Assembly: GCA_051313645.2 (NCBI GenBank)
Contig: JBNRSN020000010.1
Location: 9,858,001-9,922,000, forward strand
Origin: Centroscyllium fabricii
Taxonomy: Eukaryota
Reading direction: 5' to 3'
DNA: 64,000 nt
The translations under genes and the position numbers were made by a program. Every line of letters begins with the position of its first letter. The stretch's first letter is position 1. The notes below the pieces were generated by a model that searched no databases, was not told the DNA's origin, and saw nothing but the letters and a program-made list of their open reading frames with translations. This document shows positions 11,270-64,000 of the stretch, piece after piece.

Positions 11270-12620
11270 ACGATGTTTAACACTAGTGTAATATAGGTTG
11301 TCACTAATATTGGAGGAGCACGATCAGTTTTACGGTAAGTGTCGGATACCTATAGTAAGGGAGTTCCACGTTCACCTATACAGTAAGTATCGTTTACCAT
11401 AAGTACAGGAGAAGCACTGGCAAAAAAAATGTAAATGTAGACGTAAGTCAAGTGATGGAGGAGCCTGCCCCACTCTTCTGTATGTTTAGCGAACCGCTAG
11501 TACACATGAATGCGCCCACTCCTGATGTAGATATAGACTGTCCCGAGTATAGGAGTAGCGTGGACATTACTACTGTAGGTGTAGAATATAAATAGTACAG
11601 GTGGAGCACCGTCAACTATACTGTGGGTGTAGAGTTTAAATAGCACAGAAGGCGTACGGTCAAATCTATTGTAGGTGCAGGATATCAATAGTACTTTCGG
11701 ATTATGGTCATCTCTACTGTACGTTTAGTGTCTAAATAGTACAGGAAGTAAAGGTCATATGTACTGTAGCTGCAGGATATCAATAGTACAGAATGAGCAC
11801 AGTCATCTGTAATTCAGTTGTCTTGCATAAATAGTACTGTAGGATAACTGTCATTTATTCTGTAGGTGTAGTATATTAACATTATCTGTGGAGAAAAGTC
11901 ATTTCTACTGTAGATTTCGTACATAAATAGTACCGGAGGAGAACGGTCATCTCTACTGTAGATGTAGAATATAAAACGTAAATGCGGAGGGCGGTCATCT
12001 CATCGCAATTCAATTCAATTTAATTCAATTCAGTTCAATTCAATTCAATCCTCTACTGTAGTTGTAGGGTATAAATGATACCGGTGGAGCACGGTCAACT
12101 CTGCTGTAGTTGTAGTGTATAAAGTGTACGGTTGGATCACGTTCAGCTCTAATGTAGTTGTGGTGTATAGGTTGTAGCGGAGGAGCACGGTCTTCTCTTC
12201 TGTAGGTGTTGTGTATAAGTAGTACCGGAGAAGCACGTTCATCTCTATTGCAGTTGTGTATAAATGGAGCACGGTCATCTCAACTATACGTGTAGTGTAT
12301 AAGTGATACAGGAGGAGCGTGGTCATCTTTACTATAGGTGTAGTGTATAAGAAATACGGGAGGAACACGGTCATTACTACTGTAGGTGTAGGATATAAAT
12401 ATTACTGTGGGGCAATATCAACTCTAGTGTTAGCGTAGGTTATCAATAGTAATGCAGATGAACTGTCACCACTAGTGTTGGTGTAGGTTATCACTTGCAG
12501 TAGAGGAACACGGTTACCGCGAGTGTTAGTGTAGTTTATGACTAGTAGAGGAGGAGCACGATCACGTCAAGTGTAAATTTTGGGAGATACTTGTACCAGA
12601 AGAAGAGCGTCACCTCTAAT
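11270..12620 (-). repeat. 48-bp satellite/minisatellite array, diverged relative of the 49-bp satellite
   Basis: GGAGCACGGTC-like motif at 12086, 12134, 12182, 12230 (period 48). The reverse-complement consensus GTAGAGATGACCGTGCTCCTCCGGTACTATTTATACACTACACCTACA aligns with the 49-mer of 35.7-38.8 kb and 53.5-64 kb. Confidence 0.9.
12006..12049. repeat. (CAATT)n microsatellite embedded in the satellite
   Basis: About 9 units directly visible. Confidence 0.9.
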
Positions 12621-12824
12621 TCTGCAGATCTGTGATCATCACCAATATTACACAATTTGTTTCAGCACCTGTTCTGGAAGAGTTGGAGCAGTAGGATTCA
12701 GTGAAGCGTAGGGACTGGGCGATGGCAGCCAGTGTAATTGTTTTCAACAGACCCGTTGGAATAGGGTCTGCTCCAGTTTTGGCAGTTTCCAGTTTGCATT
12801 TATAAGAATGTTTTATTGCGCATG

Positions 12825-13059
12825 TTTTTGAAACTGTACATTAACAATTTCACATATTTTTCTTAATCTGACGTTTGAGCAATTAAATCTTGCCTCAGTC
12901 AATTTGCTGAATTAATGTAAATAATGCCAATTATGTTTCAACATTATTGATTCCCTTAAAGATTAATGTGTTGATAAATATTTCTTCCCTTCCATTTTCG
13001 CAGCCGTGCGCCAGTCAAACTCATTTAGCTGCGGCAGAATCGATCCATTCCCACAGAAA
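12825..13059 (+). promoter_or_regulatory. Putative proximal promoter of GPCR copy 1
   Basis: Aligns by eye to the reverse complement of 52954-53200 and 35151-35390; shared TTAATCTG, TAATGC(C/G)AATT and TATA-like GATA(A/G)ATAT blocks. Confidence 0.55.
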
Positions 13060-13911
13060 ATGGGTCGACCAGCTCTGCTGCTGATAAAAGAGATTAACTA
13101 CACGATTCTGGCAACTTTTTGTTCCCCAGTGAGCCACTGTATCTTGCCTGTTGTTAATCGGTGTTTACTGTCTCTATGTTCGTATCGCATGCTGGATAAT
13201 GTAACTGTTCTACAGATGTCAGCGTGTCCGCACTTTCCACATATCCCTTAATGCCACAACATTAGTAATGTTACGATGATCTGTGCAGCTCCAACACAAG
13301 GATTTTTCCGATTTCCAGATCGGCTTCTCACCCCGTGCAGTGTGAGTGCAGACGTAGCTCATTAAAATGTGTGGGTGGGTTTCCCACGTAATAGCTCCAA
13401 TACCAACCCTGTTCTCACACTGCTCCGTGCTGAAAATCACAGTGAATGGAGCAACATGCTCTCAGCAGGGATCTCCATATACATTTCAATCAGGCAGCGT
13501 TAAATCAATGCTCTCCTCTCTCTTTCTTACAGCGAAATTGGTCACAATTGAGATACTCACCCGAGGAAACTGCGGCCTTTCCAAAGGAATTTCTGTCTAC
13601 ATGGTTGCCATGGCAACAACTGATCTACTGGTCATGATTTCCAATGTAGTAGTGTATTATATTCTCAGTTATCAATTTCCATTGTAATTCCTGTCCCTTA
13701 CTCCCATGTGTATGTTCAATCTATACATGAAAGCCGTCAGCTTCGATTTGTCTGTTTGGTTCAACGTCTCCTTTACATTTGACCGATGTTTAATTATCTG
13801 TTTTCAGAAGTTTAAAGTACCTTATTCATAGAATCATAGAAATTTTACAGTGCGGATAAGGGCCATTCGGCCCATCCAGTCCGCACCGGCCCAGAAAAAC
13901 TCCTCACTGTA

Positions 13912-16802
13912 CTAACCCCAGTTGCCCGCACCTGGCCCATAACCCTGTATGTTATGGTCCTTCATGTGCTGGTCCAAGTATTTTTTAAATGTTGTGATGG
14001 TTCCTGCCTCCACCACCCTCACAGGCAGGGAGTTCCAGTCTTCCACCACCCTCTGGGTAAATAAATTTCTCCTTACCTCCCCCCTAAACCTCCCCCCCCT
14101 GATCTTCAATCTATGTCCCCTAGTGCTTGACTCTCCCACCAGGGGAAACAATGCACCTTTGTCTACCCTATCGTGTCCCCTCATGATCTTGTACACCTCA
14201 ATCATGTCACCCCTCCACCTTCTCTTCTCCAAGGCAAACAACCCCAGCCTGTCCAGCCTTTCCTCGTAGCACAGGTCCCCCAGACCAGGTATCATCCTGG
14301 TAAACCTTCTCTGCACCCTCTCCAGGGCAGCCACATCCTTCCTGTAGTGCGGTGACCAGAACTGCACACAGTACTCCAGCTGAGGTCTCACCAGTGTGTT
14401 ATACAAGTTTAACATTACCTCCCTACTTTTGTATACTATGCCCTGGTTAATAAAGGCGAGAATTCCGTATGCCTTCTTAACTACCTTGTTAACGTGTCCA
14501 GCAACCTTCAGGGAGCTGTGCACCTGTACCCCCAGGTCCCTCTGTTCCTCGGTCCTATTTAACGTTTTGTTGTTCATGGTATATTCCCTTACCCCATTTG
14601 GTCTACCGAATTGTATGACCTCGCATTTCTCTGGGTTGAACTCCATTTGCCATTTTTCTGCCCAATTAACCATTATATCTATATCCTCCTGAAGCCCCTT
14701 ACTATCCTCATCGTTGTTTACCACCCTTCCGATTTTCGTATCATCAGCGAATTTGCTGATCGTACCCCCTACTCCCATATCCAAATCGTTGATGTATACT
14801 AGAAACAGTAAGGGTCCCAAAACCGATCCTTGGGGGACGCCACTGGTTACTGGTTTCCAGTCACAGAAGCAGCCCTCTACCATTACCCTTTGTCTCCTAT
14901 CCCCCAGCCAATTTTCGATCCACTGTGCCAAGTTACCCTGTATCCCGTGCGCTCTAACCTTTGTTATTAGTCTCCTATGTGGGACTTTATCAAAAGCTTT
15001 GCTAAAGTCCATATACACTACGTCCACAGTACTCCCTTCATCCACCCTCTTTGTTACCTCCTCAAAGAATTCCAACAGATTGGTCAGGCACGACTTACCT
15101 TTGACGAAGCCATGCTGACTGTCTCTTATTAGACCTTGGTTGTCCAAATGCGAACTGATTTTATCCCTCAGAATTTTTTCCATTACTTTCCCCACTACAG
15201 ATGTAAGACTGATTGGTCTGTAGTTGCCCGGTTTGTCCCTACTACCCTTTTTAAACAGGGGTACTACATTAGCCGTTCTCCAGTCCTCAGGTACATCCCC
15301 TGACGCGAGAGAGGTCCTGAAGATTTGAGACAGGGGACCCGCAAGCTCCTCCCTGGCCTCGAACAGCAGCCTGGGGAACATTGCGTCCGGCCCTGGTGAT
15401 TTGTCCACCTTTAAGCCTCCCAAGATTTCTAGAACTTCTTCCCTTGTAATGGTAATATCCTCAATTACCCCCCCTACATTCTGTCCGATTTCGATGTCGG
15501 TATCGTCCCTCTCTCTTGTGAATACTGAAGAGAAGAATTCATTTAGTACCTCCCCCACCTCCTCGGGCTCGACGCACAGCTTTCCGCTATCGTCTTTAAT
15601 GGGCCCCACCCTTTCCCTCGTGATCCTTTTGTTTTTTATATAACTATAAAATGCCTTAGGGTTATCCTTGATTTTACCGGCCATTGTAATCTCATGACCT
15701 CTCTTGGCTTTTCTTATCTCCTTCTTTAAATCCCCCCTATATTTCTTATACTCCCCTAGTGCCTCCTCAGTTTTTAGCCGTTTATATTCATTAAAAGCCC
15801 CCCTTTTTTTCTTCATTAATTTACATATATCCCTAGACATCCAAGGTTCCCTTTGTTTGTCTCCCCCACCCTTAATTTTTGCAGGAACATTTTCCTCCTG
15901 TATCTTCCCGACTTCCCCTCTGAAGGCCTCCCACTGCTCTGATGCAGATCTTCCTCTGAGGAGATGGCCCCAATCTACTGCGGTTACATCGTTCCTAATT
16001 TTATTGAAATCCGCCTTCCCCCAGTTTAGTATTTTTACCCCTGGTCCATTTTTATCTTTCTCCATTACAATTTTGAAACTAACTGAATTGTGGTCGCTAT
16101 CCCCGAAGTGCTCCCCCACTGTTACCTCCTCTATCTGCCCGTCCTCGTTCCCAAGTATTAGGTCTAGTACCGCCCCCCCCCCTTGTAGGTGACCCAACAT
16201 ATTGTTTCAAAAAATTATCTTGGCTGCATTGTAAGAATGCTGAACCATCCGTGCCCCTCACACTTTGATTCTCCCAGTTGATATTGGGGAAATTAAAGTC
16301 CCCTAGTATTGTTACTTTATTATTTTCACTTATCTTCGTGATTTGTTCACATATCTTATCCTCTACCTCCCCTTTACTGTTTGGTGGTCTATAATATACT
16401 CCCAGTAAGGTGCCCCCCCCTTTTTTATTTTTTACCTCCACCCATAGTGCCTCGTTTGAGGATTCGTCCATTAGGTCGACCCGCCTAATGGCTGTGATTG
16501 AATCCTTAATCAGTATCGCTACCCCCCCCCCCCCTTTTACCCTCGTCCCTGTCCCGCCTGAAAATTCTATACCCCGGAATGTTTAGCTGCCATTCTTGCC
16601 CCTCTTTCAGCCACGTCTCCGTGATAGCTACTATATCATATTCCCATGAGTCAACCAATACCTTTAACTCATCCACTTTGTTAGTCAGGCTCCTTGCGTT
16701 AAAGTATATGCCTTTCATTCTCTGTCCTAAAACTACCTTGTTTTGCTGTCTAGTCTGCTTTCCTTTATTAGGTTGTGTTCCCCTATCCATTATACCTTCC
16801 AT
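13912..16802 (-). CDS. CR1 ORF2: APE endonuclease + reverse transcriptase (two +1 shifts in poly-G runs)
   Basis: EN motifs YFNARSL, AITETWL, GVYYRPP, LGDFNFP, SDHNSV; RT motifs YRPISLTS, DFSKAFDKVPH, GVPQGSVLGP, FADDTK. Split across ORFs 16506-16802, 16097-16471 and 13912-16200 only at homopolymers. Confidence 0.9.
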
Positions 16803-16825
16803 CTGGGTCCCCTCCCCCTGCCAAA

Positions 16826-17380
16826 TTAGTTTAAACCCACCCCAACCCGGCTAGCAAACCTTCCCGCAAGGATATTGGTCCCCTTCTGGTTCAGGTGCAA
16901 TCCGTCCTGCATGTAGAGGTTCCACCTTCCACAGAAGTAAGACCAATTGTCCAAAAAGCTGAAACCCTCCCTCCTACACCAATCTCTTAGCCACGAATTA
17001 AGCTGCTCTATCTTACGGTTCCTGTACTCATTAGCTCGTGGCACTGGGAGTAATCCAGAGATTACAACCTTTGGGGTCCTGCTTTTTAGCTTCTTACCTA
17101 GCTCCTTAAATTTTCTTTGCAGGACCTCGTCCCCCTGTTTTCCTATGTCGTTGGTGCCAATGTGGACCACAACTTCTACCTGGTCCCCTGCCCCCCTCAA
17201 GATGTCCTGCAGCCGCTCCGTGACATCCCGGACCCTGGCACCAGGGAGGCAAGTAACCATCCTGGTGTCACGTCCGCGGCCGCAGAACCGCCTCTCTGTG
17301 CTCCTTACAATTGAATCCCCTATTACTACTGCTGGCACACTAGTTTCCCTCCCTTTCTGGGCAGCCCCAGCACCCCCAGT
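16826..17380 (-). CDS. CR1 ORF1 C-terminal SGNH/GDSL esterase-like domain (5'-truncated)
   Basis: AVVIGDSIVR...CLPGARV...HIGTND...DGLHLN motifs (ORF 16826-17338). Confidence 0.88.
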   Translation of the reverse strand, partial: TGGAGAAQKGRETSVPAVVIGDSIVRSTERRFCGRGRDTRMVTCLPGARVRDVTERLQDILRGAGDQVEVVVHIGTNDIGKQGDEVLQRKFKELGKKLKSRTPKVVISGLLPVPRANEYRNRKIEQLNSWLRDWCRREGFSFLDNWSYFCGRWNLYMQDGLHLNQKGTNILAGRFASRVGVGLN

Positions 17381-20300
17381 GCACCGAGAGAACTGCGGAC
17401 GCGGTTATAACAGCATTCTCGGTCCTGATCTTTTTAAAGGAAATTCCCATATTGTTTGCATTTTAACCACAGCAAATAATTAACCAAGTGCCGTGGGGCT
17501 GCCGGAATTGTGTAGATTTTCTTTCCTCGCCTCACGGTGAAGCGTATCTCTGGTTTCACACCACATGGCGCGCTTGGCTTCCCTTCACCTTAATGGGCTT
17601 GTTTAATTGTTTGACGGTCAGACTTATACTGTTGGCCAGCAGATCGCGCAGGGCATTCCAGGGATAGAGCAGTGTGAACTTCTGCGATGCAGAGATGGAA
17701 AGCCGAAGGAAATTCATCATTTTCCTCTTCGCTATTTCGGGGAGTTATATATTGCTGTAGATGACAACCTCCGTGAATTTCTTAACTACCAGAATGACAA
17801 ATGTCAGTTATTACCGAGGCGACCGCACAATCCTAGACTATATCGGCACTGAAACCGCAGATCTGCTGAAGCTTTTGAGCGCCTGTGCGAACACATGTAT
17901 CTATGCAGCGACCCAGAGGAAAACCAGAGAAGAGCTGCAGAATGTTTTGAAATCTCCGTGGACACTCATTCTGAGATATGTTAAACATGAAAGAAAGCTG
18001 AACTAGAGCTTCGGTCGTGACATTTGAATTCCGTTATACCTCCTGATGTAGTTTAGAATGAGGCTTTCTCTTGTAACCGTTAAGTACGGATTGTTGTTTG
18101 TAAAATATAACAGGTACTGGTGGTACACGTTCAGGCACGCTAGTATATTTGGCGCCCTTTGTAGCACTTAACGACAACGAACACCGTAGGTTTCCGCAGT
18201 TCTTTGGCCGAGTGTCTCCTCCCAAACAAGTACATTCCCCCTTAAGAACTTGTAATGACCGTGATGAAGGGAAATGTAAAAGGCAAAGACAATAGTTGAT
18301 CAAGGAGTTTAATATCTGATCCTGCGCCGGCTGTAATCAGTTCTATCATATATTGGACGGATCAATCATCAGTTTTAGGGAAATATTTTATCGTTTACAA
18401 CTCTCGGTCCAATTACTTTTTTCTAACAGGTTTGGTGAAAATGTTACTTGGACTGATTGCCGCAGCAAGGGCCGCTTCACCCCTTCTCCTGGAAACAAGC
18501 AGCGTTGCCGCTGTCCCCTTCACAGTATTGGGATGTTTCACCACGATCTGAATGTTTACTGGAGTTTCCTCGTTTTACCATTTTTTCTGACGTCTCTAAG
18601 AAATATGGGAAGTCTGCCCAGCAATATTTAAAAAGTTGCTCCTTGCTGTTAATAAATGTATTATGTTGAATCTATGTGTTATTAACGTGTATCAGCGACC
18701 CTGTAACTTGGCAAATGAACATACGAATTAAGGATTTATAATCGGGTCATTTCAGGCAGGGATCAATAATCAGGGCTCTCAGATATTTACATGGCATAAT
18801 CCGCTGTATGTGTTGTTGCGCTAACAGAAGAATGTAATATGCCCATCGCTTTTGTCAACTGGTATTGACCGGGACCCCCAGTGGAAGGCGGTGTTTTGTG
18901 TGAGCCGGCCGCCATCGCTGGTGACCTTGGTGTGAGAGGGTTTCCCGGGGATACGTATTCAGATGAGGGTTCGATGCAATGTATTAGCATTTTGTTCGAC
19001 CTCCAATTTAAGTGCCCCGATTGAAAGTGGTTTCAAAATTAGTCTGCATTACACGTGTATTCAGAATGAAACATATCGAGGAGAAGCTGTCCCTCGAATT
19101 GGGTAAATCCATGGTAAATCCATTTTTCGCACTGCAGGATCTGCAAGAAAGTCAGCGGACTGTCTCTGAAAGCTTCCCCTGTTCAATTCAGTATCCCGGG
19201 TTCTACATATAAACAGACAGCTCTCTGTCCGCTTGATCTTCACAAATCTTCTGAAATTAATGGACGCCGCAGATGTTATTTGTTTTGTTGGTTATTATAT
19301 ATGCTAAACTGATTGGCTTGAATGCATTTTTTTCGCCCAGTCGGATTGTATTTTTATCGCCGTGCGTTCATTGTGCTGCATGCCTGTCCTTATCAGTCCG
19401 TTTAAGATTCGTGGAATCTGAATATTCTGAAAGTAGGGTGATTTTCAAAATCGGCCTGAACGAAAATCGGGCTGCAGTGCACTGGGCGCCAGAAAAACAC
19501 CCCGCCGACTTTTCCTTTTAGTTGTCTATAACAAAAATAAAATTGGGTGGCTGTAAAATACGTCGCTGCCAATCGACAGAATTCACTCAAGCTAAGTAAA
19601 AATCCCAGAGTGATTGACATGCTTCCTATATTCCGATTACTAATTTATAAAATTCTGACTAATTTGAAGTAGGCTCCAACTGTTTCAAGACTCTTTACTG
19701 TTAGACTCAGTTGGGTAGAGCAGCCTTTGGATTGCGTGTCCGTTTATAATTAGTTTATATGAAATCTAATCGCTCATAAATTCGTACACTCGGTAACAGC
19801 TGTAAATGTTTATTTAAACTATTTTGCATAATCGGGTCGAAATAAACTGTTTAATAATTGGGATATATCTTAGACGTAGTTCCCTATTGTGTATCTATAA
19901 GTCGGAGCTCGATGATCGCGTTGGATGTGTTTTTATCACAGTGCAGGGAATTCTGTTGTTGGAGAATGTTAGTGGAGGATTTCAGAGCTCCGTCTGAGTC
20001 TGGCGGTGGTCCTTACATCGGAATCTGCCTCTTGTTCCACATAATGCTAGAGGAATGTAAAGGGATCGTTAACTCAGCCGTAGTTAAATACATTTTATGT
20101 TATATTAATGGGGGGAAATGAATGCCCAGAGCTGATGTCCACACGTCTAATATTCCCGAAAAAGAACAGCACGGATAAATATTAGTGATGTATTTATTAA
20201 CCTTGAAAACGTCAAATAAAACAGCCGAACATACAAACTGCAAGGCTTTAAAAATGCAGGAGCTCCAGAAAAAAATTGGTGACACGTCACTGAATCAGCT

Positions 20301-22065: not shown

Positions 22066-22089
22066 AATACTTTGCATGTGCCTTCATTA

Positions 22090-25360: not shown

Positions 25361-25374
25361 ATTCTCGAGAAGCC

Positions 25375-25787
25375 CCATCCCAACGCGCTTTACATTCAAT
25401 GACGGACTTGTATAAAGTGCAGTTACTGTTGTAATGTAGGAAGCGTGAGCGCAAATTTGAGCACAGACAATCTCCCACACACAGCAATGAGATAAAGACC
25501 AGATGATCAGTTTTTGTGATGTTGGTCGATCAATGAATAGTGTCAGAACACTGTGGAAAAAAACATGGTCTTCTTTGAAGTAGTGCTGAGTGATATTTTA
25601 TGTTCTTCTGACAGATTAGCCTTGGCCTCGGTTTGATGTTCCGTCTGAACGACGGCACATCTAACAGTGCAGCACACACTCAGTACATAACTGAGGTGTC
25701 AGCATTGATTTTGTGTTATAGTATGTGGAGCGGAGCTTTCACCCACTGTCATTTGATGCAGAGGCGAGAGTGTAACCACAGAGCCAC
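25375..25787 (-). mobile_element. DeuSINE-like (SacSINE1-type) tRNA-derived SINE
   Basis: Reverse-complement tRNA-like head (...gcagaggcgagagtgtaaccacagagcca) and Deu-like core (ggcctcggtttgatgttccgtctgaacgacggcacatctaacagtgcagcac); truncated paralog at 45870-46170. Family name from recall. Confidence 0.65.
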
Positions 25788-30145: not shown

Positions 30146-30199
30146 GTATGATATTTAACCTGTTCTATTTGTAATGGATTCTCTGAGACAGCAATCAAA

Positions 30200-30580: not shown

Positions 30581-30611
30581 TCTCCTTGGATATAATGGTG
30601 TTTTCTCAATA

Positions 30612-32890: not shown

Positions 32891-32990
32891 TATCACATTA
32901 CCAGAAAGAAGGAGGCTCAACGGTGAAAAAGGTGTTTTCTGTGGAGATTCAGTAACGAGGAACCTTTAGTTTAATTGATTCTTTTAATTC

Positions 32991-49182: not shown

Positions 49183-49705
49183 AATTCTCATGATATCTTT
49201 ATCTGCAGCACTAAACACGAGCAGAGTCCATCTTTGTACAGGTTGAGAGACACCAGTCAGCGCACAAGCGTGATTTTAAGTCAGTATCTGGGACACACGT
49301 TTTGAAAGGTCACATCGATGAGCCGAGATATGACTCTTTCCTGCATTGGAAAACTGAAGAAGTGATAAGCGCACGCTCCATTTGTCAACGTGGAATGGTG
49401 CCGATAGAGAAGCAGACGCCTGCAAAATTCACACCAAATACCAGGAAATTACCAATATCCGTTATCGCAAAACCTTTATTGATGATTTGAAAGTGACGCG
49501 CCCGATTGCAGTATCTGCCCACATGTCCACCACTGAATTACATCATTGTTATCATTGAGCTTTGAACTTGAAATGTGCTAAATTTGCAACAATAGGGTAT
49601 ATTTACTGAATCGCATAAGCATGAAAAATTATACATTGGAGACTCCAAATGCACGCTGCAAAATGGATAAAAAGTTCACACGAGTTCTCTCCCATTTTTG
49701 ACATT

Positions 49706-50501
49706 GGGCCCTGTTTTCCTGGGGACTCCTTATCGCACGCACCAACATTGCACAGAAGTGTGGACATCAATTTCCTCCCCGTTCCTCCCCGTTCCTGCGC
49801 TGCGTGGCAGTCCAGCCACGCTAGGTGCGCAGTGTAAGCCCCGCCCATAGATCCCAAATTTAAATAAAAAACGCCCCCAGATCCATAATTTAAATAAACA
49901 CATCCCGATTCGGACCTTTGTGAGAGCAGGGAAGTGCGGACTGCACTGAAAGATTGGCGGGGAGCAGCGCGGGGGCACAGCAGCTTCTCAGAAGAGGAAA
50001 CGGTAGGTAAGTCTGCCATTTTTTCCTCTTAGATTTTTTATAGATAGAGAGTTAAACATTTCAGAAATTTAACTTTAAAAATTAGCGATTTGAAACAGGT
50101 AAATTAACTTAAAATCGGATTTGTAACATTTTTTAAAAAACTTTAACTTAAAAATTTAATGCTCCGATCTGGACACATTACTCCCAAAAACTGTAAAAAA
50201 TTAAAATTAAAGTTACAAAATTAACTTACCTGCTTCAATAACTAAATCTTCTCCCTCTTACTACTGTTTTTTTCGTGGGCAGCTTGTGAGCCTGTTGCAC
50301 ACGGAATCACTCTCTAAAAATCACCCGTTCTGACAGGAAATCGTCAGTGCAAGGTCTTCCTGTGTTGGGACCTGACGGGCCTTGCCCATCAGCACAGGAA
50401 ATTACCGTTCGTTGGCATCCCCCGTGTTGCACACCCACGAGGCATTTCTGAACCCCCTTTGTGGGTGTGCAGCTCCTCTGGAGCACAGGAAAACAGGGCC
50501 C
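49706..50501. mobile_element. Harbinger-type MITE, family A, copy 2 (inverted relative to 21231-22065)
   Basis: TIRs GGGCCCTGTTTTCCTG / CAGGAAAACAGGGCCC; TSD ATT (49703-49705, 50502-50504); single ATT at the empty paralogous site 32717-32719. Confidence 0.92.
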
Positions 50502-50504
50502 ATT

Positions 50505-50699
50505 ATGTGGAGGTGCCGGAGTTGGACTGGGGTGGCCAAAATGTAAGAAGTCACACAACACCAGGTTATAGTCCAACAGTTTTATTTGAAATCACAAGCT
50601 TTCGGAGCGTTGCTGACGAAGGAGCAGAGCTCCGAAATTTTGTGATGTCAAATAAAACTGTTGGAATGTAACCTGGTGTTGTGTGACTTCTTACATTTT
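50505..50699. mobile_element. Penelope-like inverted-repeat insertion with a partial hammerhead motif (copy B)
   Basis: Arms ~50538-50608 / ~50628-50699; CTGACGAAGGAGCAGAGCTCCGAAA core; probable TSD ATTTTT(G/A)ACATT. Confidence 0.78.
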
Positions 50700-50797
50700 T
50701 AACATTACCAGTAAGAAGGACCCTCAACGGTGAAAAAGGTGTTTTCTGTGGAGATTTAGTAACGAGGAATCTTTAGTTGGATTGATTACTTTAATTC

Positions 50798-51702
50798 TCA
50801 TTTTCTGCCAATTCCCAATATTAATGTCCAGGTGTATTTCACCACCTTCTTCAGCTCTTCTCTGAATTTCCTCTGGGTGGCGAAATAAATACACGGGTTT
50901 TGAAAGCAGCTCAAAAACTTCAACATTGTTCCAGTTTCAGTGGCGATATATCCAGGATCTGTGCGGTCACCTCGGTAATAGGTGTTGTTTACCAGTTTGG
51001 TAGCTACAACACTCACAGCAGTTGTCAGCCACAACAATATAAAACTGCCCGATATAGTGAACAGTAAAATGATGGATTTAATTCGGTTTACCATCTCTGG
51101 ATCGCTGTGATTTTTACTCCTCTGACCCCGGAGTCCCCTGCGGGCTCTGCTGGCTTCTAAAATACGTCTGATTGTCAAATAATTAAACAAAGAAATTAAC
51201 GTAAAAGGAAGCCAAACGCCCCAGGCGCTGTGAAACCAAATGTAGGCTACACCTGGAGAAGAGGAAAAAAAAGCCACACTGTTCCGGCAACCCCACTGCA
51301 CCTTGTTAATGATTTGTTGCGCTTCAAATGCAAACACAACGGGGACGCCCCTTAACATGGTTATGACCGTGAAAGCTGTTAAAACCGTGGCCGCATTTCT
51401 CTCGGTGCAATACTTTGTATTAAATTTCTTGCAGCAGATAATAACACATCGGTCAAATGTGAAGGCGACGGTGAACCAAACAGACAAATCGAGGTTGACT
51501 ACAGTCAAATATAGAATGAACTTACATACCGGGGTGTGGTACAGGAATGAAAGTGGAAAGCGATAATTGACAATATGATACAATATTACATTGATGATCA
51601 ATACAAATAGATCTGCCGTTGCCATGGCCACCATGTAGACAGAGATACACTTGGAAAATCCGCAGTTTCCTCGGAAGATAATCACCATTGTCACCAAGTT
51701 CG
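50798..51702 (-). CDS. Probable G-protein coupled receptor 139-like (class A GPCR), exon 2 of intact copy B
   Basis: Acceptor ctctctttcttacag, then open to TGA at 50798: ANLVTMVIIFRGNCG, YMVAMATADL (TM2), CK (TM3 Cys), FTFDRC (DRY-like), WGC (ECL2 Cys), WLPFTLI (TM5), FILLWLT (TM6), NPCIY (NPxxY) and KFREEL (helix 8). Confidence 0.93.
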
Positions 51703-51731
51703 CTGTAAGAAAGAGAGAGGAGAGAAATAAT

Positions 51732-52487
51732 GGTCCAAACATTAGCCTTGGTGTCTTCCTACAAGTGCACGGCTCCAAGGTACACTTACGCTGCACTTCT
51801 GCCTTTTTACAAGTATGGGATGTGACATTGCGAGTGGTGCAGCTGCTGTAAGCTACAGGCGAATTGCTGGTGCAACTGAACGGCATAATTAGTGCTAGAT
51901 ATCGCACGGGTCTTTTGATCCGCAGGGAGCCAATCAATGGAAGCAATTCTTCCTTCATAACTTACACGGAGTTATCAGTGTAATTTATGAATAGGAAGAG
52001 CTTCAAAAACACATCTAAGCGCAAAATTAACCTAAAAAACACCACATTTGTTCACAATATTCTAACAAACATAAATTACACTTTTAAAGAAAAAATAAAC
52101 ATTTAGAAACACAATTTAAAGTTTTTAACTGGCCTAAAACAATACTTACCTCTCTTTAAAGTTTTTTTTTTTTTTTTAAACTTGTTAAAATAACACTTAC
52201 ATTCTATAAAATTAAGTCTTTCCTGCTAAGAACGGATGGTTACGGAGATATTTTTAGCTCTATACTTCAATACTACCCCGATAAAAAACTCAAAAAACAT
52301 GGGAAGTCCAGTACGCAACTCATGGTGCGCAGACCAATGCGATCCAGTTCGCAGCAGCTCGCGATCCACCACAGGACCTATCGGAATTGCAGGAAGCAGC
52401 AGGAAACGGCTGCACCCTGCAATTCGGACCTGGGTGCGTGAGCACACGGATCGAAAGCCTCTTGCGCTCATACGGATTTCGGACTCA
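51732..52487. mobile_element. Harbinger-type MITE in the GPCR intron (copy B)
   Basis: Paralog of 33924-34683; ends GGTCCAAACATT ... ATTTCGGACTC flanked by AAT/ATT. Confidence 0.65.
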
Positions 52488-52883
52488 TTGTTCCAGCGTC
52501 TGATGATGTCGATATGGAGATAGCTGTTGAGAGCATTATACTCCAGTCAGTGAGATTATCAAAACGGAGCAGTGTGAGAACAAGATTACTTTTGGAGACC
52601 TTACCCTGGAAAAACAACCACACAATGAGCTGGAGCAGTGCTCAGTCAGTAAGTGGTGACAAGACTGTCGAAATCCTCCTATAAACGTGGGTTGGAGCTT
52701 CAAAGTACAGAGTAATCTCAGTAAGGTTATCGGATTAAGCGGACTCACGATTCAGGATTTATTTCTCATCACTACCGTATGTTTAATGCTGCCATCTCGA
52801 GAACTCCGTACCTTAACAAAGATGCTCTATGTACATGGATACAGATAACTCCGACTAAAAACAAACAGGTTATCGTCACTCAC

Positions 52884-52953
52884 CGGGTACAGCAAAGACC
52901 GCGAGAATCGGGTAGTAAATCTCTTTGATCAGCAGAGTAGCTGGTCTCCCCAT
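52884..52953 (-). CDS. GPR139-like GPCR, exon 1 of intact copy B (MGRPATLLIKEIYYPILAVFAVP)
   Basis: ATG at 52953; 70 nt ending CCC G|GTGAGT; the phase-1 donor joins exon 2 to give GCG AAC (A-N). Total 975 nt = 324 aa + stop. Homologous exon present in both other copies. Confidence 0.9.
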
Positions 52954-53200
52954 TCTCTGTGACAATGAATTAATTCTGTCAGAGCAAAAGGACTCTGATT
53001 GGCGCAACGCTAAGGGAATGGGAGGGAACCTATATTTATCCACACATCAATCCTCCAGCGAGTCAATCAGGTTAACTCATAATTCGCATTAATTACAGTC
53101 ATTAAACATTTAGACCCAATTACATTGTTTTTCTTATCTGACACGCCAGATTAAGAGAAATCTGTTTAATTGTTGTCGGTTAGTTCAAAAAAATACTGAA
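52954..53200 (-). promoter_or_regulatory. Putative proximal promoter of the intact GPCR
   Basis: TATA-like GATAAATAT ~80 bp upstream of the ATG, TAATGCGAATTA (53080-53091) and TTAATCTG; conserved with the diverged copy 1. Confidence 0.55.
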
Positions 53201-53489
53201 TTAAAATATTATTTACGAGTAGGAAGTGCAATAAAACGGTACTGGTGATGCCCCTCGTCCCACAAACCGGGTGAAGGCAGCAACCCAAGCTATAATTTTC
53301 TTGACCCTGACTTTGATTCACTTCTAGAGCAAAAACTCCCACAGAACAGGCGGCAAAACAAACCCTGCAGTAATTGCGAGGATCACATTCTGTCAGCAGT
53401 AGAAGTGCCAGTGCTCCTCCCGTACAAGTGGCACCCTACTTTTAGATAAGAGGGAAATCCATCCCCCCCCCCTCCCCGCTGTAATGCTG

Positions 53490-56400
53490 GCACATTACAC
53501 TTATATTAGATGTGGCCGTACACCTGAAGTACTCGTACCATGCCTACACTGGAGTTGAAAGTTCTGCTAGGGTAATAGTGGTAGAACTACATGAACACTC
53601 TTACGACAGTGCTCCTCCGGTACAAATTGAAGAATCCTTATACATTAGCTGTGTGTGAGCTCGGCCTATACGGTGGTACGTCTCCAGTTACATTAGATGT
53701 GACCGTCCCTCTCCTGCGCCAGTGCTATGACTACACTTACATTGACGTGACCATGCACTTTCTTTCCCCTGCTACCCCAACACTGGCACTAGATGCGAAA
53801 TTTCCCCTGCTATCGTAGTGCTACATTGACACCAGATGTTTCTACCCCTCCTGTCCCAGTGCTACCCCTACACTGACACAATATTTGACCATTCCCCTTT
53901 TCTCCTTGTGCTATGCACACTCTGACACTAGACATGTCCATGCTCATCCTGTCCCGCTGTTAACCCTGCACTGACTAAAGTAGTTAACCTGTCCCTCCTG
54001 TCCTACTGGCACAACTAAACTGACACTAGATATGACCGTGTCACTGTTTTTCCAATTTTAACACTATCATTACACTAGATGTGAACGTGTACCTCCGGTC
54101 GCAGTGCAACTCTAACAATACGTTACAGTAGATTTGACCGTGCCCATCCTGTCCCAGTGTTAAAACTACACTGACAAAAGTTGTGACATCTTCCCTACTG
54201 TTCAAGTGCTACCCTTACAATGACAATAGATGTTACCGTGTCTCACATTTCATAATTTTACACCTACTATTACACTAGATTTGACTGTGCCCCTTCTGTC
54301 CCAGTGTTAAAGCTACACTGGCACTCGATTTGACCGTTATCAGTCCTGCCCCACTTTTACACATCCACTGCCATTTGATATGACCTTGCCCCGCCTGTCC
54401 CTGTGCTAAAGGTACAGTTATAATTGATATGTGTTTGCCCCGCATTTCCCAAAGTTACCCCTACACTATCATTAGATGTGGCCTGTCCCCCAGCTGTCCC
54501 AGTGTTACCACTGACGTTACACTAGGGTTGACCGTTTTCCAGCGGTCCAAGTGCTACCACTAAAAGTAAAATAGATGTGACAATGCAACTACTGTTTAAT
54601 GGTACCCATACACAGACACGCAACATAACAGTGACCCTGCTGTTCTACTGTTACACGTACACATAAACTCTAGATGTGCCCTTGCACCTAATGTCCCACT
54701 GTTAAGGCTACACTCAAAATAGAGGAGACTGTGCCTCGCCTGTCCAAGTGTAAACCCTATAGTTACCCTAGATGTGATGTTGCATCTCTCGTCCCAGTGC
54801 CTTCACTGTACTGAAGCAAGATGTGACGTTGCCCCTCCTTTCCCAGTGTTCCCCCTATACTTACACTAGACATTACCGTTCTCCTCCTCTCCCCGTGTTA
54901 CCCCGAAGCTTACACTAGATGTTTCCATGTCCCTCCTATCCCAGTGCAACACCTACACTTACACTAGATGTGAACGTTCTCCTCCTCTCCCAGTGTTACC
55001 CCGACACAGTTACTAGATGTGACCGTGTACCTGCTTTCTTAGTTCTACCCCAACATTTACACTAGATGTGAACGAATCCCTCCAGTCCCAGTGTTACCCA
55101 TACAATGACACGAAAACTGAATGTGCGCGTCCTGTCCCAGCAGTACACGTACACTTACACTATATGTGACTGTGCCACTCCTGTCTCAGTGCAACCCCTC
55201 CATTAGAATTACATGTGACCGAGACCCTCCAGTATCATGGTTGCCACTGCACTGACAGAGGATGTGACTGTGCCACTCCTGTCACTGTACTACAATTACA
55301 CTGATACGAGATGTGAATGTGCCTCTCCTTTCCCTGTGTCCAAACCTATATTTACACTAGATGTAACAGAGGCCCTCCAGTCTCATTGCAACCCGTACAC
55401 TGACACGAAACGTGACAGTGCCCCTCCTGTCCCAGTGTTACCCCTACGATTACAGTAATTGTGACAGTGCCCCTCCTGTCCTAGTGAGATCCCTACACTG
55501 ACATTAGATGTAACCATGCCCTTGCTGTCTCAGTCTTACACCTACACTGGTACTAGATGTGACCTTCCCCTCCTGTCCCAGTGCTACCACTACAAGTGAA
55601 ATAGATGTAAAGGCCCACACAAGTCCAAGTGCTACGCCAGCACTTACTTTAGATATGGCCGTGACCACCCTGTTCCAGTGTAACACTTATGCTGCCACTA
55701 AATGAGGTATGCCCTTCCTGTCCCTGTGTTACACAGAAACAAACGCTTGATGTGACCTTGCCCTCCTGTCCCAGTGTTACAGCTTCAATTACAATGGATG
55801 AGAAAATGCTACGCCTGTTCCAGTGTAAGGTAAACTTACACTGGATCTGATCTTAACCTTCCTGTCCAAAATGGTATCCCCAACGTACACTAGATGTGAC
55901 CGTGCCCCACGTGTCCCAATTCAACGCCTACACGTACACTTGATATGGCCATGCAACTCGTGTTTAGTGCTATCCGTACACAGTCACGAAATATGACAGT
56001 TAAACTCCTGTTCCGGTGATTCTCCAACATTTGGAAACCTCCTGTCCCAGTCTTACCCCATATACTGGCACTAGGTATGACCTTGCCCCTTCTTTTCCAG
56101 TGTTACCTCTAGACTAACAATAGATGAGACCGCTCCTGGCCTGTCCCAGTGTAAACCCTTCACTTACACTTGAAGTGATGTTGCCTCTCCCGTCCCAGTG
56201 CTATCGCTGCACTGAATCTAGAAGTCACGGCACTCCTACTCTCCCAGTGCTACACCTACACTTTCATTTGATATGATACTTCTCCTGCGGTCCTAGTGTT
56301 ACTCCTACACTTACACTATTTGTGAGCCTACTTCTCGAGTCCGGGTTTCCCCCCTACATTGAAACTAGATGAGACTGTACCACTCCTCCCCCAGTGTTAC

Positions 56401-59400
56401 GACTACACTGAAACTAGATGTCTCTCTGACACTCCTGCCGCAGTGCGACCCTCAAAATGAAACTACATCTGACGGTAAACTTCCTGTCCAACTGCTACCT
56501 CCACATTTACATTAGTTGTGACCGTGCCCATGCTGTTCCAGTGCTACCACATCATTTAATCTAGGTATGAACGAGTCCATCCAGTCCCAGTGCTACTCAT
56601 ATACAGACACGATATAAACGGTGCACCTTCTGTACGAGTATTACAACTACACTTACACTATATGTGCCCGTGCCACAGCTGCGCTACTGCTACATCAATA
56701 TTTAAAGTAGATTGGACGAAGGCTCTCCAGTCTCTGTGTTAACACTTCACTAACTCTTGATGTGACTATATCCCTCCTGTCCCATTGTTGCCCCTACAAT
56801 TAATCTAATTCTGACCGTGCTGCTCCTGTTCCAGTGTTACCCCTAAACTGACATTCAATTTGACCAGCCCCTTCCTGTCTCAGTGGTACTCCTACTTTTA
56901 CACTAGATGTGACCGTGTCCCTCCTGTCCCAGTGCAACCACTGGATGGGCATTATATGTGATTCTACCCCTCGTTTCCCGTTGCCAACCCTAAATTTAAA
57001 CTAGGTTTGTCGGAGACCCTCGAGTCCAAGTGGTACCCCTACACTGACATTGAATAATTGCATGTTCCTCATTTCTCACTGCTAATTTTACACTGGCACT
57101 AAATGTGGCCGTGCCGCCCCATTCCGGTGCAACCCCTATATTTACACTAAATGAGACCGAGGCCCTCCTGCTCAGTGCTATATCTGCACCGACACGAAAT
57201 GTGACAGTACTCCTGCTGTCTCAGTGTTAGCAATACACTGACTCCAGATGTGACCGTGCCTCTGCTGTCCCAGTGTTACCTCTACACAAACAGTAGATTT
57301 TACCGTGTCCCACCTGCATCATTGTCACCCCTACAATTACACTAGATATTTGTAAGAGGTCATGGTTACACTGGATATGTCCGAGGCCCACCAGTCCCAT
57401 TGTTACCACAATACTGACACTGGACGACATTATGCCCATTCTATCATAGTACTATCCATACACTGACAATAGATGTTACCGTGTCCCGCAGATACCGATG
57501 TTACACCTACTATAACACTAGTTGTGACTGTGCCCCTCCTGTCCCGGAATTAGCCCGAAACTGACACTAGATGTACCCTTGCCCCTCCTGTCACAGAGCT
57601 AAACCTACACTGCAATTAGGCGTGACCGAGGGCCTCCAGTTGAAGTGTTACCACTAACGAGACACTGGATGTGACCATCACTCTCCTATCCCAGTGCTAC
57701 CCCTACACGTACTCAAGATGTGAACGTGCCCCTTGTAACCCAGTCCTGCGCCTATATTTACACCAGATGTAACCGAGGCCCACCAGTCCCATTGCTACAC
57801 ATACACAGACACGAACAGTCCAAGTGTTAACCCTACAATTACACTAATTGTGCCAGTGCCCCTCCTGTGTAAGAGTTACCCCTACACTAACATTAAATTT
57901 GACCGCGCCCTTCCAATGTCAGTGCTACTCCTGTATGTGCACAAGATATGACGGTGTCCAGTTTGTCCCAGTGCTAGCCCTACACTGAAACAAGGTGTGA
58001 ATGTGCTCTCCCATCCCAGTACTAAAACAAATATTTATACTAGATGCGTCCGAGGCCGTCGACTCCCAGGGGCACCCCTACGCACCGTGCCCCTACTGTC
58101 TCACTGTCATCCCTGCATTTAGACTAGATGTGACCGACACACTCCAGTTTCAGTGATACCAATACACTGACACTGGATGTGACTGTGTGCCTCCTGTTCC
58201 AGTGTGATCGCTACACATAAACTAGATGTGGCCATCGCTCTTCTGTCCCTGTGTTCACTCTACATTTACACTGGATATGATGGAGGCCCACATATCCCAG
58301 TGTTACACCAAAAGAGTGACGGGATGAGACAATGCCCCTCCTTTCCCTGTGCTACCCCTACATTTACAATAGTTGTTAACGTGTCTCACATGTCCCAGTG
58401 TTTAAGCTACATTTACTACAGGTGAGGCACCGAATCAAGTGTAAACCATACACTTACTCTAGATGTGAGAGTGCTTATCCCGTCCCTTTGCTATCCCTAC
58501 GCTAAACCTAGATGTGACGGTAGCACTACTGGCCCAGTGCTACCCTGCCCGTACACGAGATATGGTTGTTCTCCTCCTGTCCCAGTGCTACTCTTTCGCT
58601 TACACTAGATGCGTGCGTTCCACTCCTGTCCAAATTTTACCCTTTTCTGAATCAGTGTGAATCCGTACCTCTCCTTCCCCAGTGTTACCCATACACTGAT
58701 AATAGATCTGACAGTAACCTTTCTTTCCAACTGCTACCCCCACATTTATAATAGATTTGACTGTGCCCCACCTCTCCCAGCATTACCCCTAAACTGGCAC
58801 AAAATATGAATGTGCCACTCCTGTCCCAGTGCACCAACACTTAAAAGATATGTTAACGAGTTCCTCCCGTCCCAGGGCTACCCAGTTACTGTCACGACAT
58901 GTGACAGTGCCACTCCTGTACCAGCGTTACGCCGAAACATACACTGGATGTTACGATGCCTCTCCTATCTCAGTGCTTCCTCTACATTTAGACTAGATGT
59001 GAGCGAGTTCCTCCTGCCCCCAGGCGACACCTACACTCATACTAGATTTGAACGTGTCCCTCCTGTCGCAGTGATACACCTATTACTACGCTACATGTGA
59101 ACGTACCACTCCTATCCCTCTACGATCACTAAACTTACACTAGATGTGACAGTGCACCTCCATCTGCTCCGGCTACATTTATACTAGATGTGACTGTGTC
59201 CCATCTGTCCATGTGTTACCCCTACAGTGACACTAGATGCGAATATGCCGCTCCTGTCCCAGTGTTTCCTCTACACTGACCCTAGATGCAACCGTGTATC
59301 TCCTGTACTATGTGGGATCCCTACACTGACAATACATGTGATCGTTCCCATCCAGTTCCAGTGTTAGCTCTACCCTCATAGTAGATGTGACTGAGCCCCT

Positions 59401-62400
59401 CATTTCCCATTAAGAGCACTACACTTATACTAGTTATGACCGTGCCCCGCCTGTGCCAGTGCCATAAATACACTGACACAAGATGTGACACTGCCCCTCA
59501 TGCCCTTTGTCTCCCCTACACTGACACTAGGTGCAACCGTGTCCCTCCTCTCCCAGAGGGACCTCTAAACTGATATGAGGTTTGACTTTGCCCAATTTGT
59601 CCCATTGCATACCCTACACTCACAGTAGATGTGACTGTGCCTTGTTGTCCCAGCGTTTCGTCTACACTCACACTAGATCTAACCGTATCCCTACTGTGCC
59701 ATTGTTACCCTTACATTTACACTAGAAGAGACCATGTCGCACCTGTCGCAGTGCTATCCATACACAGACACGAAATGTGGCCAAGCCCCTACTGTACCAG
59801 TGTCACCACTACAATTGCACTTGATGTGACCGTGCTACACCTGATCCAGCGTTACTCCTCCACTGACCATCTATATATCAACAATCCCTCCTGTCGGATT
59901 GTTACTCCTGCACTTACAGTAGATGTAACTATGCCTCCCCTTTCCCAATGTTACCAGTACTCTTAAACGAGATCTGAGCTCCTCCTCCTGGATAAGTGCT
60001 TCCCAAAAACTTAGACTACATGTAACCGTGCCCTTCTGCCTCACTGTTAGTCCTGCGCTTACACTAGATGTGACAATTCCCCCACTGTCCCTGTGCTACA
60101 CCTACACGTATACTATTTGTGACCATGCAAATGTGTTTCGTGCAACCCATACACAGACAGGAAATATAACAATACCATTCCTGTTAAAGTGTTACCCTTA
60201 TACTTACAATAACTGTGACCGAGACCCTCCAGCCCAAGTCTTACACCTACACTGACACTAGATATGAACATGCCCCTCCTATCCCAGTGCTAGCCGTATA
60301 TTTACACTAGATCTGAACGAGGCCCTCAGAGCCCAGTGGTACGCCTACACTGACACTGGGTGTGTCCGTGCCCCTCTTGTCTCAGTGTTCCACCTACATT
60401 GACACTAGATGTGGCGTGCCCGTCAAATCCCTGTGCAATCCATATAGTTACACTAGATGTGACCGAGGCCCTACTGTCCCAATGATACCCCTACACTGAC
60501 ACGATATTTGACCGTATCACACCTCTCCCAGTTTTACCACAACACTGACACTAGATATGACTATACCTGTCCTGTCCCAGTGTTAACGATACAATGATAC
60601 AAGATGTAAGAGTACCTCTCCTGACACACTGCAACACCTTAAATTACAATGGATGTGACCGTGGCCCTCCTATCCCTGTGCAACCGCTTTATTCACACTA
60701 GATGTGACAGAGGCCCCCCTGTCCCAGCGCTACACATACACTGACGTAAAATGTGATAGTGCCCCTGCTGTACCTGTGTTATGCATACACTAAAACTAGA
60801 TGTGACCGACCCCCTCCTGTCCCAGTGTAGCCCTACATTTAACCAAATATGACGGAAACACTCCATTACCAGTATTACCCCAACACTGACAGTGGATGTG
60901 TCGATGCCCTTCCTGTCCCAGTGTTAAACCTACACTAATACAAGATGTGAGCGCTTCCCTGCCGTCCCAGGGCTATCCCTACACTGACAAAGAAGTTAAC
61001 GTGTCTCCCATGTCCCATTCCTACATATACTATTACACTTGATGTGACTTTGCCATTGCTATCCAAGTATTAACCCGACACTGACACTAGTTAAGACCTT
61101 GCCCCTTCTGATCCAGTGCTGAACCTACACTGAATCAAGTTGTGAATGTACCACAGCTGTCCATGAGCTAACACTAAATTTGTACAATATAGCACCATGC
61201 CTCTCCTGTCCATGTGCTACACATACAGTGACTCTTGACGTGACCTTGCCCCTCATTTCCCAGTTTTAACCCTACACTCAAACTACATGTGATTTCTGAC
61301 CCTCCATTACCAGTGTTAATGCTACACTTAAAATAGTTATGGCAGTGCCCCAACTGTGCCACTGCTACCCCTACACTTACACTAGATATGACCATGCAAG
61401 TCCTGTTTAATGCTACCCATAAACAGACACGAAACATGACAGTGCCCCTCCTGCCCTTGGTGTTAAAGCTACAGTTACTATAGATGAGGTCGTGCCTCGC
61501 CTGTCCCAATGTAAACCGTACACTTGCACAATATTTGTGGGTGCCTCTCTCTTCCCTGTACTATCCCTATGCTGAATCTAGATGTGACTGTACCCCTCTT
61601 GTCCCAGTGCTACCCCGACAAGTACACTAGATTTGACCGTTCTCACATGTCCCAGTGGCACTCCTAAACCTTACACTAGATGTGAGCGTATCTGTCCTAT
61701 GCGAGTTCTCCCCTACAATGAAACAAGATGAGACCACAGCACACCTGCCCCAGGGTTAGCCATGCACTGATACTAGATCTGACTCTAACGTTCCTGTCCA
61801 CGTGCTACCACGACATTAAAATTAGTTGTGACCATACCACTCCTGTCCCAGCATTACCACTATACTGAAACAAGATGAGAACTGGGCCCCACTGTCCCAG
61901 TGCAACCCCAACATTTAAAATAGATGTGCACGAGGCCCTCCAGTCCCAGGGATATCGAAACACTGTCACTACATGTGACATTCCGCATCTGTCGCAGCGG
62001 TCACCCTAAACTTACACTAGATGTTGCCGTGCCCATCCTGTCTCAATTATACGCCTACCTTTACACTAGCTGTCACCGAGGCCCTCCTCTCCCATACTAC
62101 ATCTACACAGATACTAGATTGGACCATGTCCCTCCTGTCGCAGTGCTGCCCGTACAAACACACTACATGTGCACGTCACTCTCCTGTCCCTGTGCTACAT
62201 TTACACATATAATAGATGTGACAGTGCACCTACTTTCTCCGTGCTACATCTACATTTACATTAGATGTGACTGTGCCCATTCTGTCCATTTTTTATAACT
62301 AAAATGACTCAGGATTTGACCATGCCGCTCCTGTCCCAGTGTTTCCCCTACACTGACACCAGATGTAAGTGTGCCATCATCTCCCAGTGGGAACTCTTCA

Positions 62401-64000
62401 AGTAAATAAGATGTAATCGTGCCCACCCTCTCTCAATGCTGCCTATAAACGTAGACCAGATGTGACTGTGCTCCTCCTTTCCCTGTATTTCCCATAAACT
62501 TGCACTAGATGCAAACGTGTACCTCCTGTCCCAGTGCTGCCCCGACACTTGCAGCAGCTGGGAACATGTCGCTCTTGTGCAGTGCTACGCATACACATGC
62601 AGGAAATCTGACCGCGCCCCTCCTGTACCGGTGTTACCACTACATTTGCACGAGATATGACGGTACCAACATTGACATAGTGTTACGCATCCACTGATGC
62701 TAGATATGACCATGCCTCTCCTGCCGCATTGTTAGTCCTACACTTGCACTGGATGGAACTATGCCTCTCCTTACCCAGTGTTACCGCTACTTTTAAACTA
62801 GATCTGAGCGGACTCCCGCAGTTCCAGTGCTACCCCAACATTTACACTAGATGCGACCGATGCTTCCCATTCCAGAAACAGCCCATATACGGACATGATT
62901 TGTGAAAGTTCCCCTCCTATCCCTGTGTTACCCCAACATTGACACAAGTTGTTACCGTTTCTCTCATTTCCGTTTTCTTATATACTATTACACTAGATGT
63001 GAATGTGACCCAACTGTCCCAGTGTCACCCATACACTTTTAATAGTTGTGACAGTGTCACTTCTGTTCCAGCTACCCCTAAACTGAAATTAAATGTGATG
63101 GTACCGCTCCTCTTTCAGCGATTGCCCTATACTGAGAGTAAATGTGTCCACTCCCCTCCTGTCCAAGTGCTACCCCTACTGTTCCAATAGATGTTCCTGC
63201 GCCCCTCCTGTCCAAGTGTTTCCCTGACACTCTTACTAGATGTGATCTTGACCCTCCTGTCCCAGCTTCCACTACACTGAAACTAGATATGATTGTACCT
63301 CTCCAGTGCCAGCACTTCCCGACAACTGATACTACATATATCCATGTCCCTCCTGTCCCAGTGCTACCCATGCACTTAGGTTCAATGTGACAGTGCCCTC
63401 CTGAATCTCTGTTAGTCCTATACTTTAAAGTAACGTGTGTATGCCCCTCCTCTCCAGTTTACCTTCTACACTGACACTAGAAGTTGACCGTGCCATTCCT
63501 GTCCCTGTTTTACCCCTACATTTACACGAGAGGTGTCCGTGCCCGTTCGGTTCAAGCGCTAGCCCTACCCTGACACAAAGTGTGAGCGTGGCCCTCCAGT
63601 CCCATGCTACCCATACGATTACACTAGATGTGACTGGGGCCCTACAGTTTCAGTGTTACCTCTACACTGACACTAGATGTGAGCCTGCCCATGATTCCCT
63701 AATTTCAACTCTAAACATACACTCGATGTGACCGTGACCCTGCTGTCGCGGTGCTAACTCTACACTTACATTAGATGTGATTTTGATCCTCCTGTCCCAG
63801 CTACGCTTACAGTGAAACTAGCTGGGACTGTATAGCTCCTGTGCCAGCGCTACCGCTAAACTGATACTAAATGTGTCCGTGCCCCTCTTGTCCCAGTGCT
63901 AACCCCACAATTAAACTAGGTGTGACCATGCCCCTCCTTTTGCTGCTTTAGCCATACACTGGCAAAATAAGTGAGAGTGTCACTCGTGTCCCATTGTTAA
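53490..64000 (+). repeat. Large 49-bp satellite array (>10 kb, runs off the window) with higher-order structure
   Basis: About 200 diverged monomers of CACTAGATGTGACCGTGCCCCTCCTGTCCCAGTGTTACCCCTACACTGA. Confidence 0.97.

Follow-up and report, generated by a model that had tools for sequence, protein, structure and literature searches.

The 64,000-nucleotide stretch of the Centroscyllium fabricii genome analysed here (positions 9,858,001 to 9,922,000 of contig JBNRSN020000010.1, assembly GCA_051313645.2; hereafter the window) contains three copies of a gene for a G-protein coupled receptor (GPCR), one on the plus strand (copy 1) and two on the minus strand (copies A and B), and each of them is preceded by a tandem array of a 48- or 49-bp satellite. 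A preliminary description of this locus had proposed that the satellite lies just upstream of every receptor copy in the same gene-relative orientation, which raises the question of whether the array takes part in the copying or control of the receptors or has simply been carried along with them. Simple co-duplication, mentioned there as a fallback, proves to be the best fit of the options. Our analyses indicate that the satellite is probably a fossil, inherited with the receptor family, in which the array does nothing sequence-specific, and ordinary co-duplication, rather than array-driven copying, is the most likely explanation of the link.

The arrays were located by a position weight matrix (PWM) scan of both strands of the window, with 20 locally shuffled windows as the null; the maximum scores in the shuffled windows were 15.6 (49-mer) and 12.6 (48-mer), against averages of 40–44 for array monomers. 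The 48-bp type was found on the plus strand at 11282–12615 (24 monomers, 1.33 kb, in the sense of copy 1, interrupted by a 5-bp microsatellite at 12006–12049). The 49-bp profile matched the plus strand at 35650–38798 (55 monomers), upstream of copy A, and at 53702–63973 (183 monomers, running past the window end), upstream of copy B. Inspection extends the first of these to about 38815 (array A, 35650..38815) and the second, through degenerate units, down to about 53400 (array B, 53480..64000, more than 10.5 kb, with a predicted end near 65,580 if collinear with A); relative to their genes both arrays are assigned to the minus strand. These are long head-to-tail arrays of fixed period (131 of the 181 spacings in array B are exactly 49 bp), and in the 48,832 bases outside the three arrays there was no monomer above the null, the one site recorded (score 12.4 at 13332) lying below the null maximum. 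The 48-mer consensus aligned to the reverse-complemented 49-mer consensus with a score of 59 (maximum 34 and mean 18 in 500 shuffles), and with a score of 11 when the 49-mer was not reverse-complemented. Hence, both the homology of the monomers and their common orientation relative to the gene, in 3/3 copies, hold as they had been described.

The spacing of ~440 bp for copy 1 and ~530 bp for A and B that had been reported does not reflect a real difference, since in A and B a gene-proximal monomer of the 48-bp type (35599..35646 and 53403..53450, respectively, both on the minus strand) forms the terminal unit and places the array edges at 444, 448, and 449 bp from the ATG in the three copies. 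This common ancestral edge is aligned in all three copies, the upstream alignment runs unbroken from the ATG into the last monomer in each of them, and copy 1 shares ~65% identity with A and B over the 500 bp before the ATG. Because the array edges align, the three associations are not independent; they are one satellite-promoter junction inherited by common descent, and this single ancestral junction accounts for the shared orientation. The link between satellite and receptor is thus seen in 3/3 window copies, which count as one ancestral event, and in 2/145 database proteins that are discussed below.

The later history of the arrays can be read from the segmental duplication that relates A and B. 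Unit A (25496..38815; 3' flank, gene, promoter, and array) is homologous to a stretch from 45879 to beyond 64000, i.e. to unit B (45879..64000), which continues past the window end; the identity between 25496–35675 and 45879–53481 is 84–89%, dS is 0.118 and dN/dS is 0.46. The possibility that A and B are mis-assembled haplotypes was rejected in view of their 11–12% divergence. The monomers in one portion of array A (35672–37232) correspond one by one, and in the same order, to those in the distal part of array B (62438–63999) at 88.5% identity (Jukes-Cantor (JC) distance 0.125), the corresponding values elsewhere in the duplication being 88.6–89.2% for the flanks, 87.5% for the intron, and 90.4% for the promoter; divergence in array and flank is alike (Fisher p=0.96). 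Over the ~32 collinear units the two arrays differ by five one-base indels and by no gain or loss of a whole monomer, and diagonals of eight monomers between A and B reach 0.895, compared with a null maximum of 0.72 (30 permutations). Monomers within each array are ~60% alike pairwise and 75% alike to the consensus, and no homogenised monomers or higher-order repeats were found within the arrays, where the profile over lags 1–15 is flat with no higher-order period.

The difference in size between arrays A and B is due to one 8.96-kb deletion in A, the junction of which, with a 4-bp microhomology, lies at 35672..35675 and corresponds to B 53482–62441. By this alignment, array B has not expanded, array A having instead lost 8.96 kb adjoining its promoter; a recent expansion of array B was considered and rejected, as it has no young self-diagonal (best eight-unit value 0.70). 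At the deletion, monomer offset 40 abuts offset 30, and an in-register crossover was rejected as its source because this junction is 10 nt off the monomer register; end-joining or slippage would fit the junction better than in-register unequal exchange. It had also been pointed out that the only intact gene has the largest array. This is true of copy B, the sole intact receptor among the three (324 amino acids, aa), but with three copies such a match has a 1-in-3 chance, and it arises from the one deletion in A.

These results bear directly on the earlier suggestion that the array drives unequal exchange, i.e. that it is a recombination substrate and that unequal crossing-over between the arrays of neighbouring genes drives the expansion of the family. 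Arrays that share an orientation and differ in size sit next to the tandem genes A and B, and the A/B homology has its right end within or past the array. The FastTree tree of 132 rows also shows species-specific clades in the family, as expected from repeated local duplication. However, no monomer has been gained or lost since the A/B duplication, and the only change in size occurred out of register at a microhomology. No monomer lies near the left end of this homology (25496/45879), the right end of which is past the window, and the 7 kb after array A have no counterpart in front of unit A. Copy 1 together with its array is, moreover, inverted relative to A and B, and monomers that are ~60% identical are poor substrates for homologous exchange. 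We regard array-driven exchange as very improbable, and this part of the earlier proposal is not borne out at the locus.

The co-duplicated unit appears to be old. The JC distance between monomers is 0.58, while the distances between copies 1 and B are 0.45 at fourfold sites (23/68 sites), 0.37 in the intron, and 0.48 in the 500 bp upstream. Since the monomer distance equals or exceeds the fourfold distance, we infer that the arrays date from around the time when copy 1 split from A and B, or from before it. In a tree built with IQ-TREE from 30 hand-chosen rows out of the 132, A and B group with Pristiophorus paralogs (support 98/87) and copy 1 is placed elsewhere, with the protein P0030 (support 83/87), which suggests that the split between copy 1 and A/B predates species divergence.

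Evidence from a second shark points in the same direction. Among 145 homologous proteins, two match the window arrays and none of their shuffled versions does so; both (P0033 and P0122) are from Heptranchias perlo (XP_067833181.1 and XP_067833185.1/186.1, on one 1.54-Mb scaffold) and belong to a third subclade in the FastTree tree. The first 79 residues of these models are a 16-aa repeat which fits the 48-mer profile in gene sense, with 120 bits for four units, a score reached by 0/2000 period-preserving (column) shuffles (maximum 50). These models, with their predicted 5' exon, indicate that the same repeat lies at some distance upstream of a receptor paralog, and on the same strand, in H. 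perlo, and that the satellite-receptor link is likely to be old. The proportion of 2/145 is not a prevalence because gene models seldom include satellites. The old unit of satellite, promoter, and receptor that had been proposed is supported by these observations, viz. the shared junction, an A/B duplication that includes the array, and the repeat in Heptranchias.

A different account treats the satellite as a shark repeat that is dispersed widely and came to lie beside the receptors by chance, the link being real by descent but uninformative on receptors. Small chromosomes of sharks are reported to be rich in short tandem repeats (10.1101/2025.06.08.657570). Against this stand the lack of above-null monomers in the 48.8 kb outside the arrays and the finding that, among database proteins, the repeat was seen solely in receptor models, although gene models rarely include satellites; we consider this account quite unlikely. 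Searches elsewhere for repeat-derived proteins returned only P0033 itself among 723 candidates and none among 207 shorter ones. Ten phmmer matches to the repeat were rejected as periodic look-alikes (one of the ten is named, a fish protein; four scored between -56 and 12 bits, against 120 for P0033). A 20-base satellite motif gave two metagenome matches, neither of them an array (best score 1.0), and no viral match, receptor loci were found in 0/84 metagenome and 0/5 viral candidate stretches, and Rfam gave no match.

The likeliest of the alternatives, although we judge it unlikely, is that selection has maintained the array for a cis-regulatory role in a large receptor family (as a heterochromatin seed, an insulator, or an enhancer platform), serving for example restricted or one-receptor-per-cell expression, so that its length or presence counts and not its exact sequence. 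The fixed position and orientation in three copies, the occurrence of this repeat 5' to a Heptranchias paralog, the long survival of the array, the long array beside the intact gene, and the size of the shark family (758 matches, the 120 listed all being from elasmobranchs of 11 species) are in keeping with such a role. Arrays A and B are also depleted in CpG (observed/expected 0.44 and 0.47, respectively, vs 0.63 for the window), which is compatible with germline methylation. On the other hand, the array of copy 1 has no such depletion (0.82), the array diverges at the neutral rate, and the match between size and intactness rests on n=3. The promoter and intron are also alignable between copies 1 and B (65–71%), and since they are equally long-lived the survival of the array needs no special selection. 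If the array were regulatory, it would offer a direct handle on the control of a large receptor family. In a more elaborate form, which we mention as speculation of very slight probability, a large orphan repertoire of shark GPCRs would carry a family-specific upstream satellite that predates the shark orders, the array would be kept because it sets the chromatin state, and each cell would express one or a few receptors; were this true, it would represent a satellite-encoded system of receptor choice in animals that have very few olfactory receptors.

Under the favoured explanation, a fossil satellite inherited with its receptor, a 48/49-bp tandem repeat would have been amplified next to an ancestral GPR139-like gene, ~445 bp on its upstream side, at about the time of the split between copy 1 and A/B or earlier. 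In later segmental duplications the array would have travelled with gene and promoter in a single block, as is seen for A and B and may be supposed for copy 1. Thereafter the arrays would have behaved as inert DNA, with point mutations at the flanking rate and occasional deletions, both of which are observed between A and B. The ancestral array probably had 48-type units near the promoter and 49-type units farther away, each copy having kept a different part.

Several points weigh against this explanation. The age is loose, the fourfold-site distance between copies 1 and B resting on 68 sites, and monophyly of the three window copies is not rejected in the 30-row analysis (approximately unbiased (AU) test, p=0.053). 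The deletion junction in A is read from the window sequence. The Heptranchias evidence consists of two near-identical gene models on one scaffold, and the repeat units there look more alike than those of the window, hinting at later homogenisation. Lastly, an array present in three deep paralog lineages and two sharks could be maintained by selection on its presence, and such selection would go unseen in a neutral substitution rate. Overall, the arrays probably have no active role, and their link with the receptors is apparently unreported. The locus is nevertheless useful, in that a satellite has apparently held its place relative to the promoter in deeply separated paralog lineages and in at least two sharks, so that family history can be traced and dated by it. 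It also shows that a tandem array of 12 kb can remain free of turnover while its sequence diverges by ~12%.

The three receptor copies share a two-exon structure. Copy B (minus strand) consists of exon 1 (52884..52953, ATG at 52953) and an intact exon 2 (50798..51702) which matches Pfam 7tm_1 with 70.8 bits (curated cut-off 30.5); the protein carries D-R (residue 107) and NPxxY (residue 292) motifs, and by the Pfam match it is a class A (rhodopsin-like) GPCR. A single open reading frame (ORF) of 386 aa (50798–51958) was rejected as the gene, its first 85 codons being intron. Copy A (minus strand; exon 1 at 35081..35150 with its ATG at 35150, exon 2 at 32991..33896) is a pseudogene with a nonsense mutation at codon 75 and a one-base frameshift near 33615, and was probably inactivated recently; with copy 1 as outgroup, the intact B has 32 derived sites and the pseudogene A has 18 (p=0.065). 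Copy 1 (plus strand) has an upstream segment at 12616..13059, exon 1 at 13060..13128 (ATG at 13060, one base short relative to A and B near the splice donor), and an exon 2 with a nonsense mutation at codon 75, split into a 5' part (13533..13825) and a 3' part (17380..17997, with more stops), so that it too is a pseudogene. The splitting insertion (13826..17379, minus strand) is a long interspersed nuclear element (LINE), CR1-like in our reading, with a reverse transcriptase ORF (13912–16200, minus strand, Pfam RVT_1) and a GDSL-esterase-like ORF (16826–17260, minus strand). Pseudogenes 1 and A have the same TCA-to-TAA stop at codon 75 (13685–13687 and 33742–33744) and a nearby His-to-Leu change; as A is far closer to B, the sharing reflects either recurrent mutation or conversion over a short tract.

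This receptor is a member of a family that is large in sharks. In a protein search with exon 2 of copy B, 758 of the 1585 candidates passed E<=0.001, and the best 120 of these homologues are all from elasmobranchs (11 species), the highest identities among them being 73–75%, to Pristiophorus and Heptranchias proteins; none of the 120 comes close to identity with the query, so that the window's species is probably not one of those already annotated. A first exon of 23 aa is present in 81 of the 120, and the exon-1 peptide of the window copies matches the N-termini of homologues; by this two-exon layout and by their nesting among shark paralogs, the window genes are part of an elasmobranch GPR139-like expansion. 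The 120 include 32 Pristiophorus, 26 Heterodontus, and 24 Heptranchias clusters, and the expansion has many species-specific clades. The name "probable G-protein coupled receptor 139" is an automatic NCBI/UniRef name: human GPR139 is the top solved-structure match of the family member P0001, but a weak one (34.9 bits, E 9e-8), and it was not recovered at E<=0.001 with exon 2 of copy B as query. GPR139 proper responds to aromatic amino acids. Contigs were surveyed in four public runs (two samples of one study, possibly of the same source as the window). They span all 30 bins of 32900–35850, and a differing letter occurs in 17–22 contigs at one exon-2 site, in 18–22 at 127 bp upstream of the ATG, and in 4–9 at -392, which indicates many paralogs in the organism, although these figures give no copy number. 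No account of this expansion, with its 758 database matches, was found in the literature searched.

Other elements were also identified in the window. The intron of A (and of B) contains a high-copy insertion of ~0.78 kb (33905..34685) that is missing from copy 1 and from some paralog contigs; it belongs to a non-coding element of ~0.6–0.8 kb, MITE-like (miniature inverted-repeat transposable element) in our reading and of very high contig depth, which is found at four places (33905–34685, 51916–52348, 31578–32058, and 48418–49049). A long terminal repeat (LTR) retrotransposon at 5002–9562 has 274-bp terminal repeats that are 93.8% identical and RNase H and integrase domains, and a decayed, chromodomain-bearing LTR element with ~500-bp repeats (87.9%) at 27344–30154 is present in unit A but not in unit B. 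Conversely, an 800-bp element with two inverted copies (21227–22022 and 49718–50505, 87%) is present in unit B but not at the matching place in A. Palindromic elements, short but with long inverted arms (self-complementarity up to 94.8%), lie at 26176–26443, 32717–32881, and 50538–50699, a diverged inverted pair (66%; 38842–39057 and 45321–45538) brackets the unique sequence that separates array A from unit B, and a small unrelated 48-bp tandem repeat (41720–41907) has no score on either satellite profile.

In comparison with known systems, copy B is a member of the group of elasmobranch "probable GPR139" gene models (73–75% identity, 23-aa first exon, 7tm_1), but their name is automatic, human GPR139 is distant, and a functional description of them was not found in print. 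The nearest named vertebrate receptors are the GPR139/GPR142 group with the GPR210A/B subtypes of gar, coelacanth, and fishes, which likewise shows extra orphan subtypes outside mammals; unlike the window family, no expansion or flanking satellite is described, and neither "shark" nor "cartilaginous" is mentioned, in the portion of that survey available (PMC6504862). Available parts of other sources describe tandem clusters in two batoids, the receptor family not being named in the main text seen (10.1101/2025.06.08.657570), and, in a whale-shark genome paper (PMC8455134), cartilaginous fishes as having a "relative paucity" of GPCRs, with no match to the receptor family in 12 of the 24 supplements of the latter and none to GPR139 in the available text of a catshark paper (PMC11979771). 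No published shark GPR139-like expansion or linked satellite was found in a literature of which subscription journals were thinly covered and supplements may list the family.

Core duplicons, repeat-seeded segmental duplications, and the D4Z4/DUX4 macrosatellite resemble this locus in that gene, promoter, and repeat are copied as a block, and in D4Z4/DUX4-type arrays, as here, array length could in principle affect expression. They differ in that the shark repeat gives no sign of seeding duplication or of changing its unit number, and the gene lies beside the repeat and not inside it. In heterochromatin-based receptor choice, H3K9me3/H4K20me3 covers silent genes and expression is monogenic; olfactory receptors, to which such singular choice applies, are like the present genes a large clustered GPCR family with many pseudogenes, but a different receptor family. 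The histone clusters of newts are interspersed with satellite 1 and provide another multigene family with a fixed satellite neighbour. Read-through transcription of satellite 2 is reported in one study (PMC2114352). The shark array differs from the newt clusters in lying upstream of single polymorphic receptor genes and in being degenerate and not homogenised.

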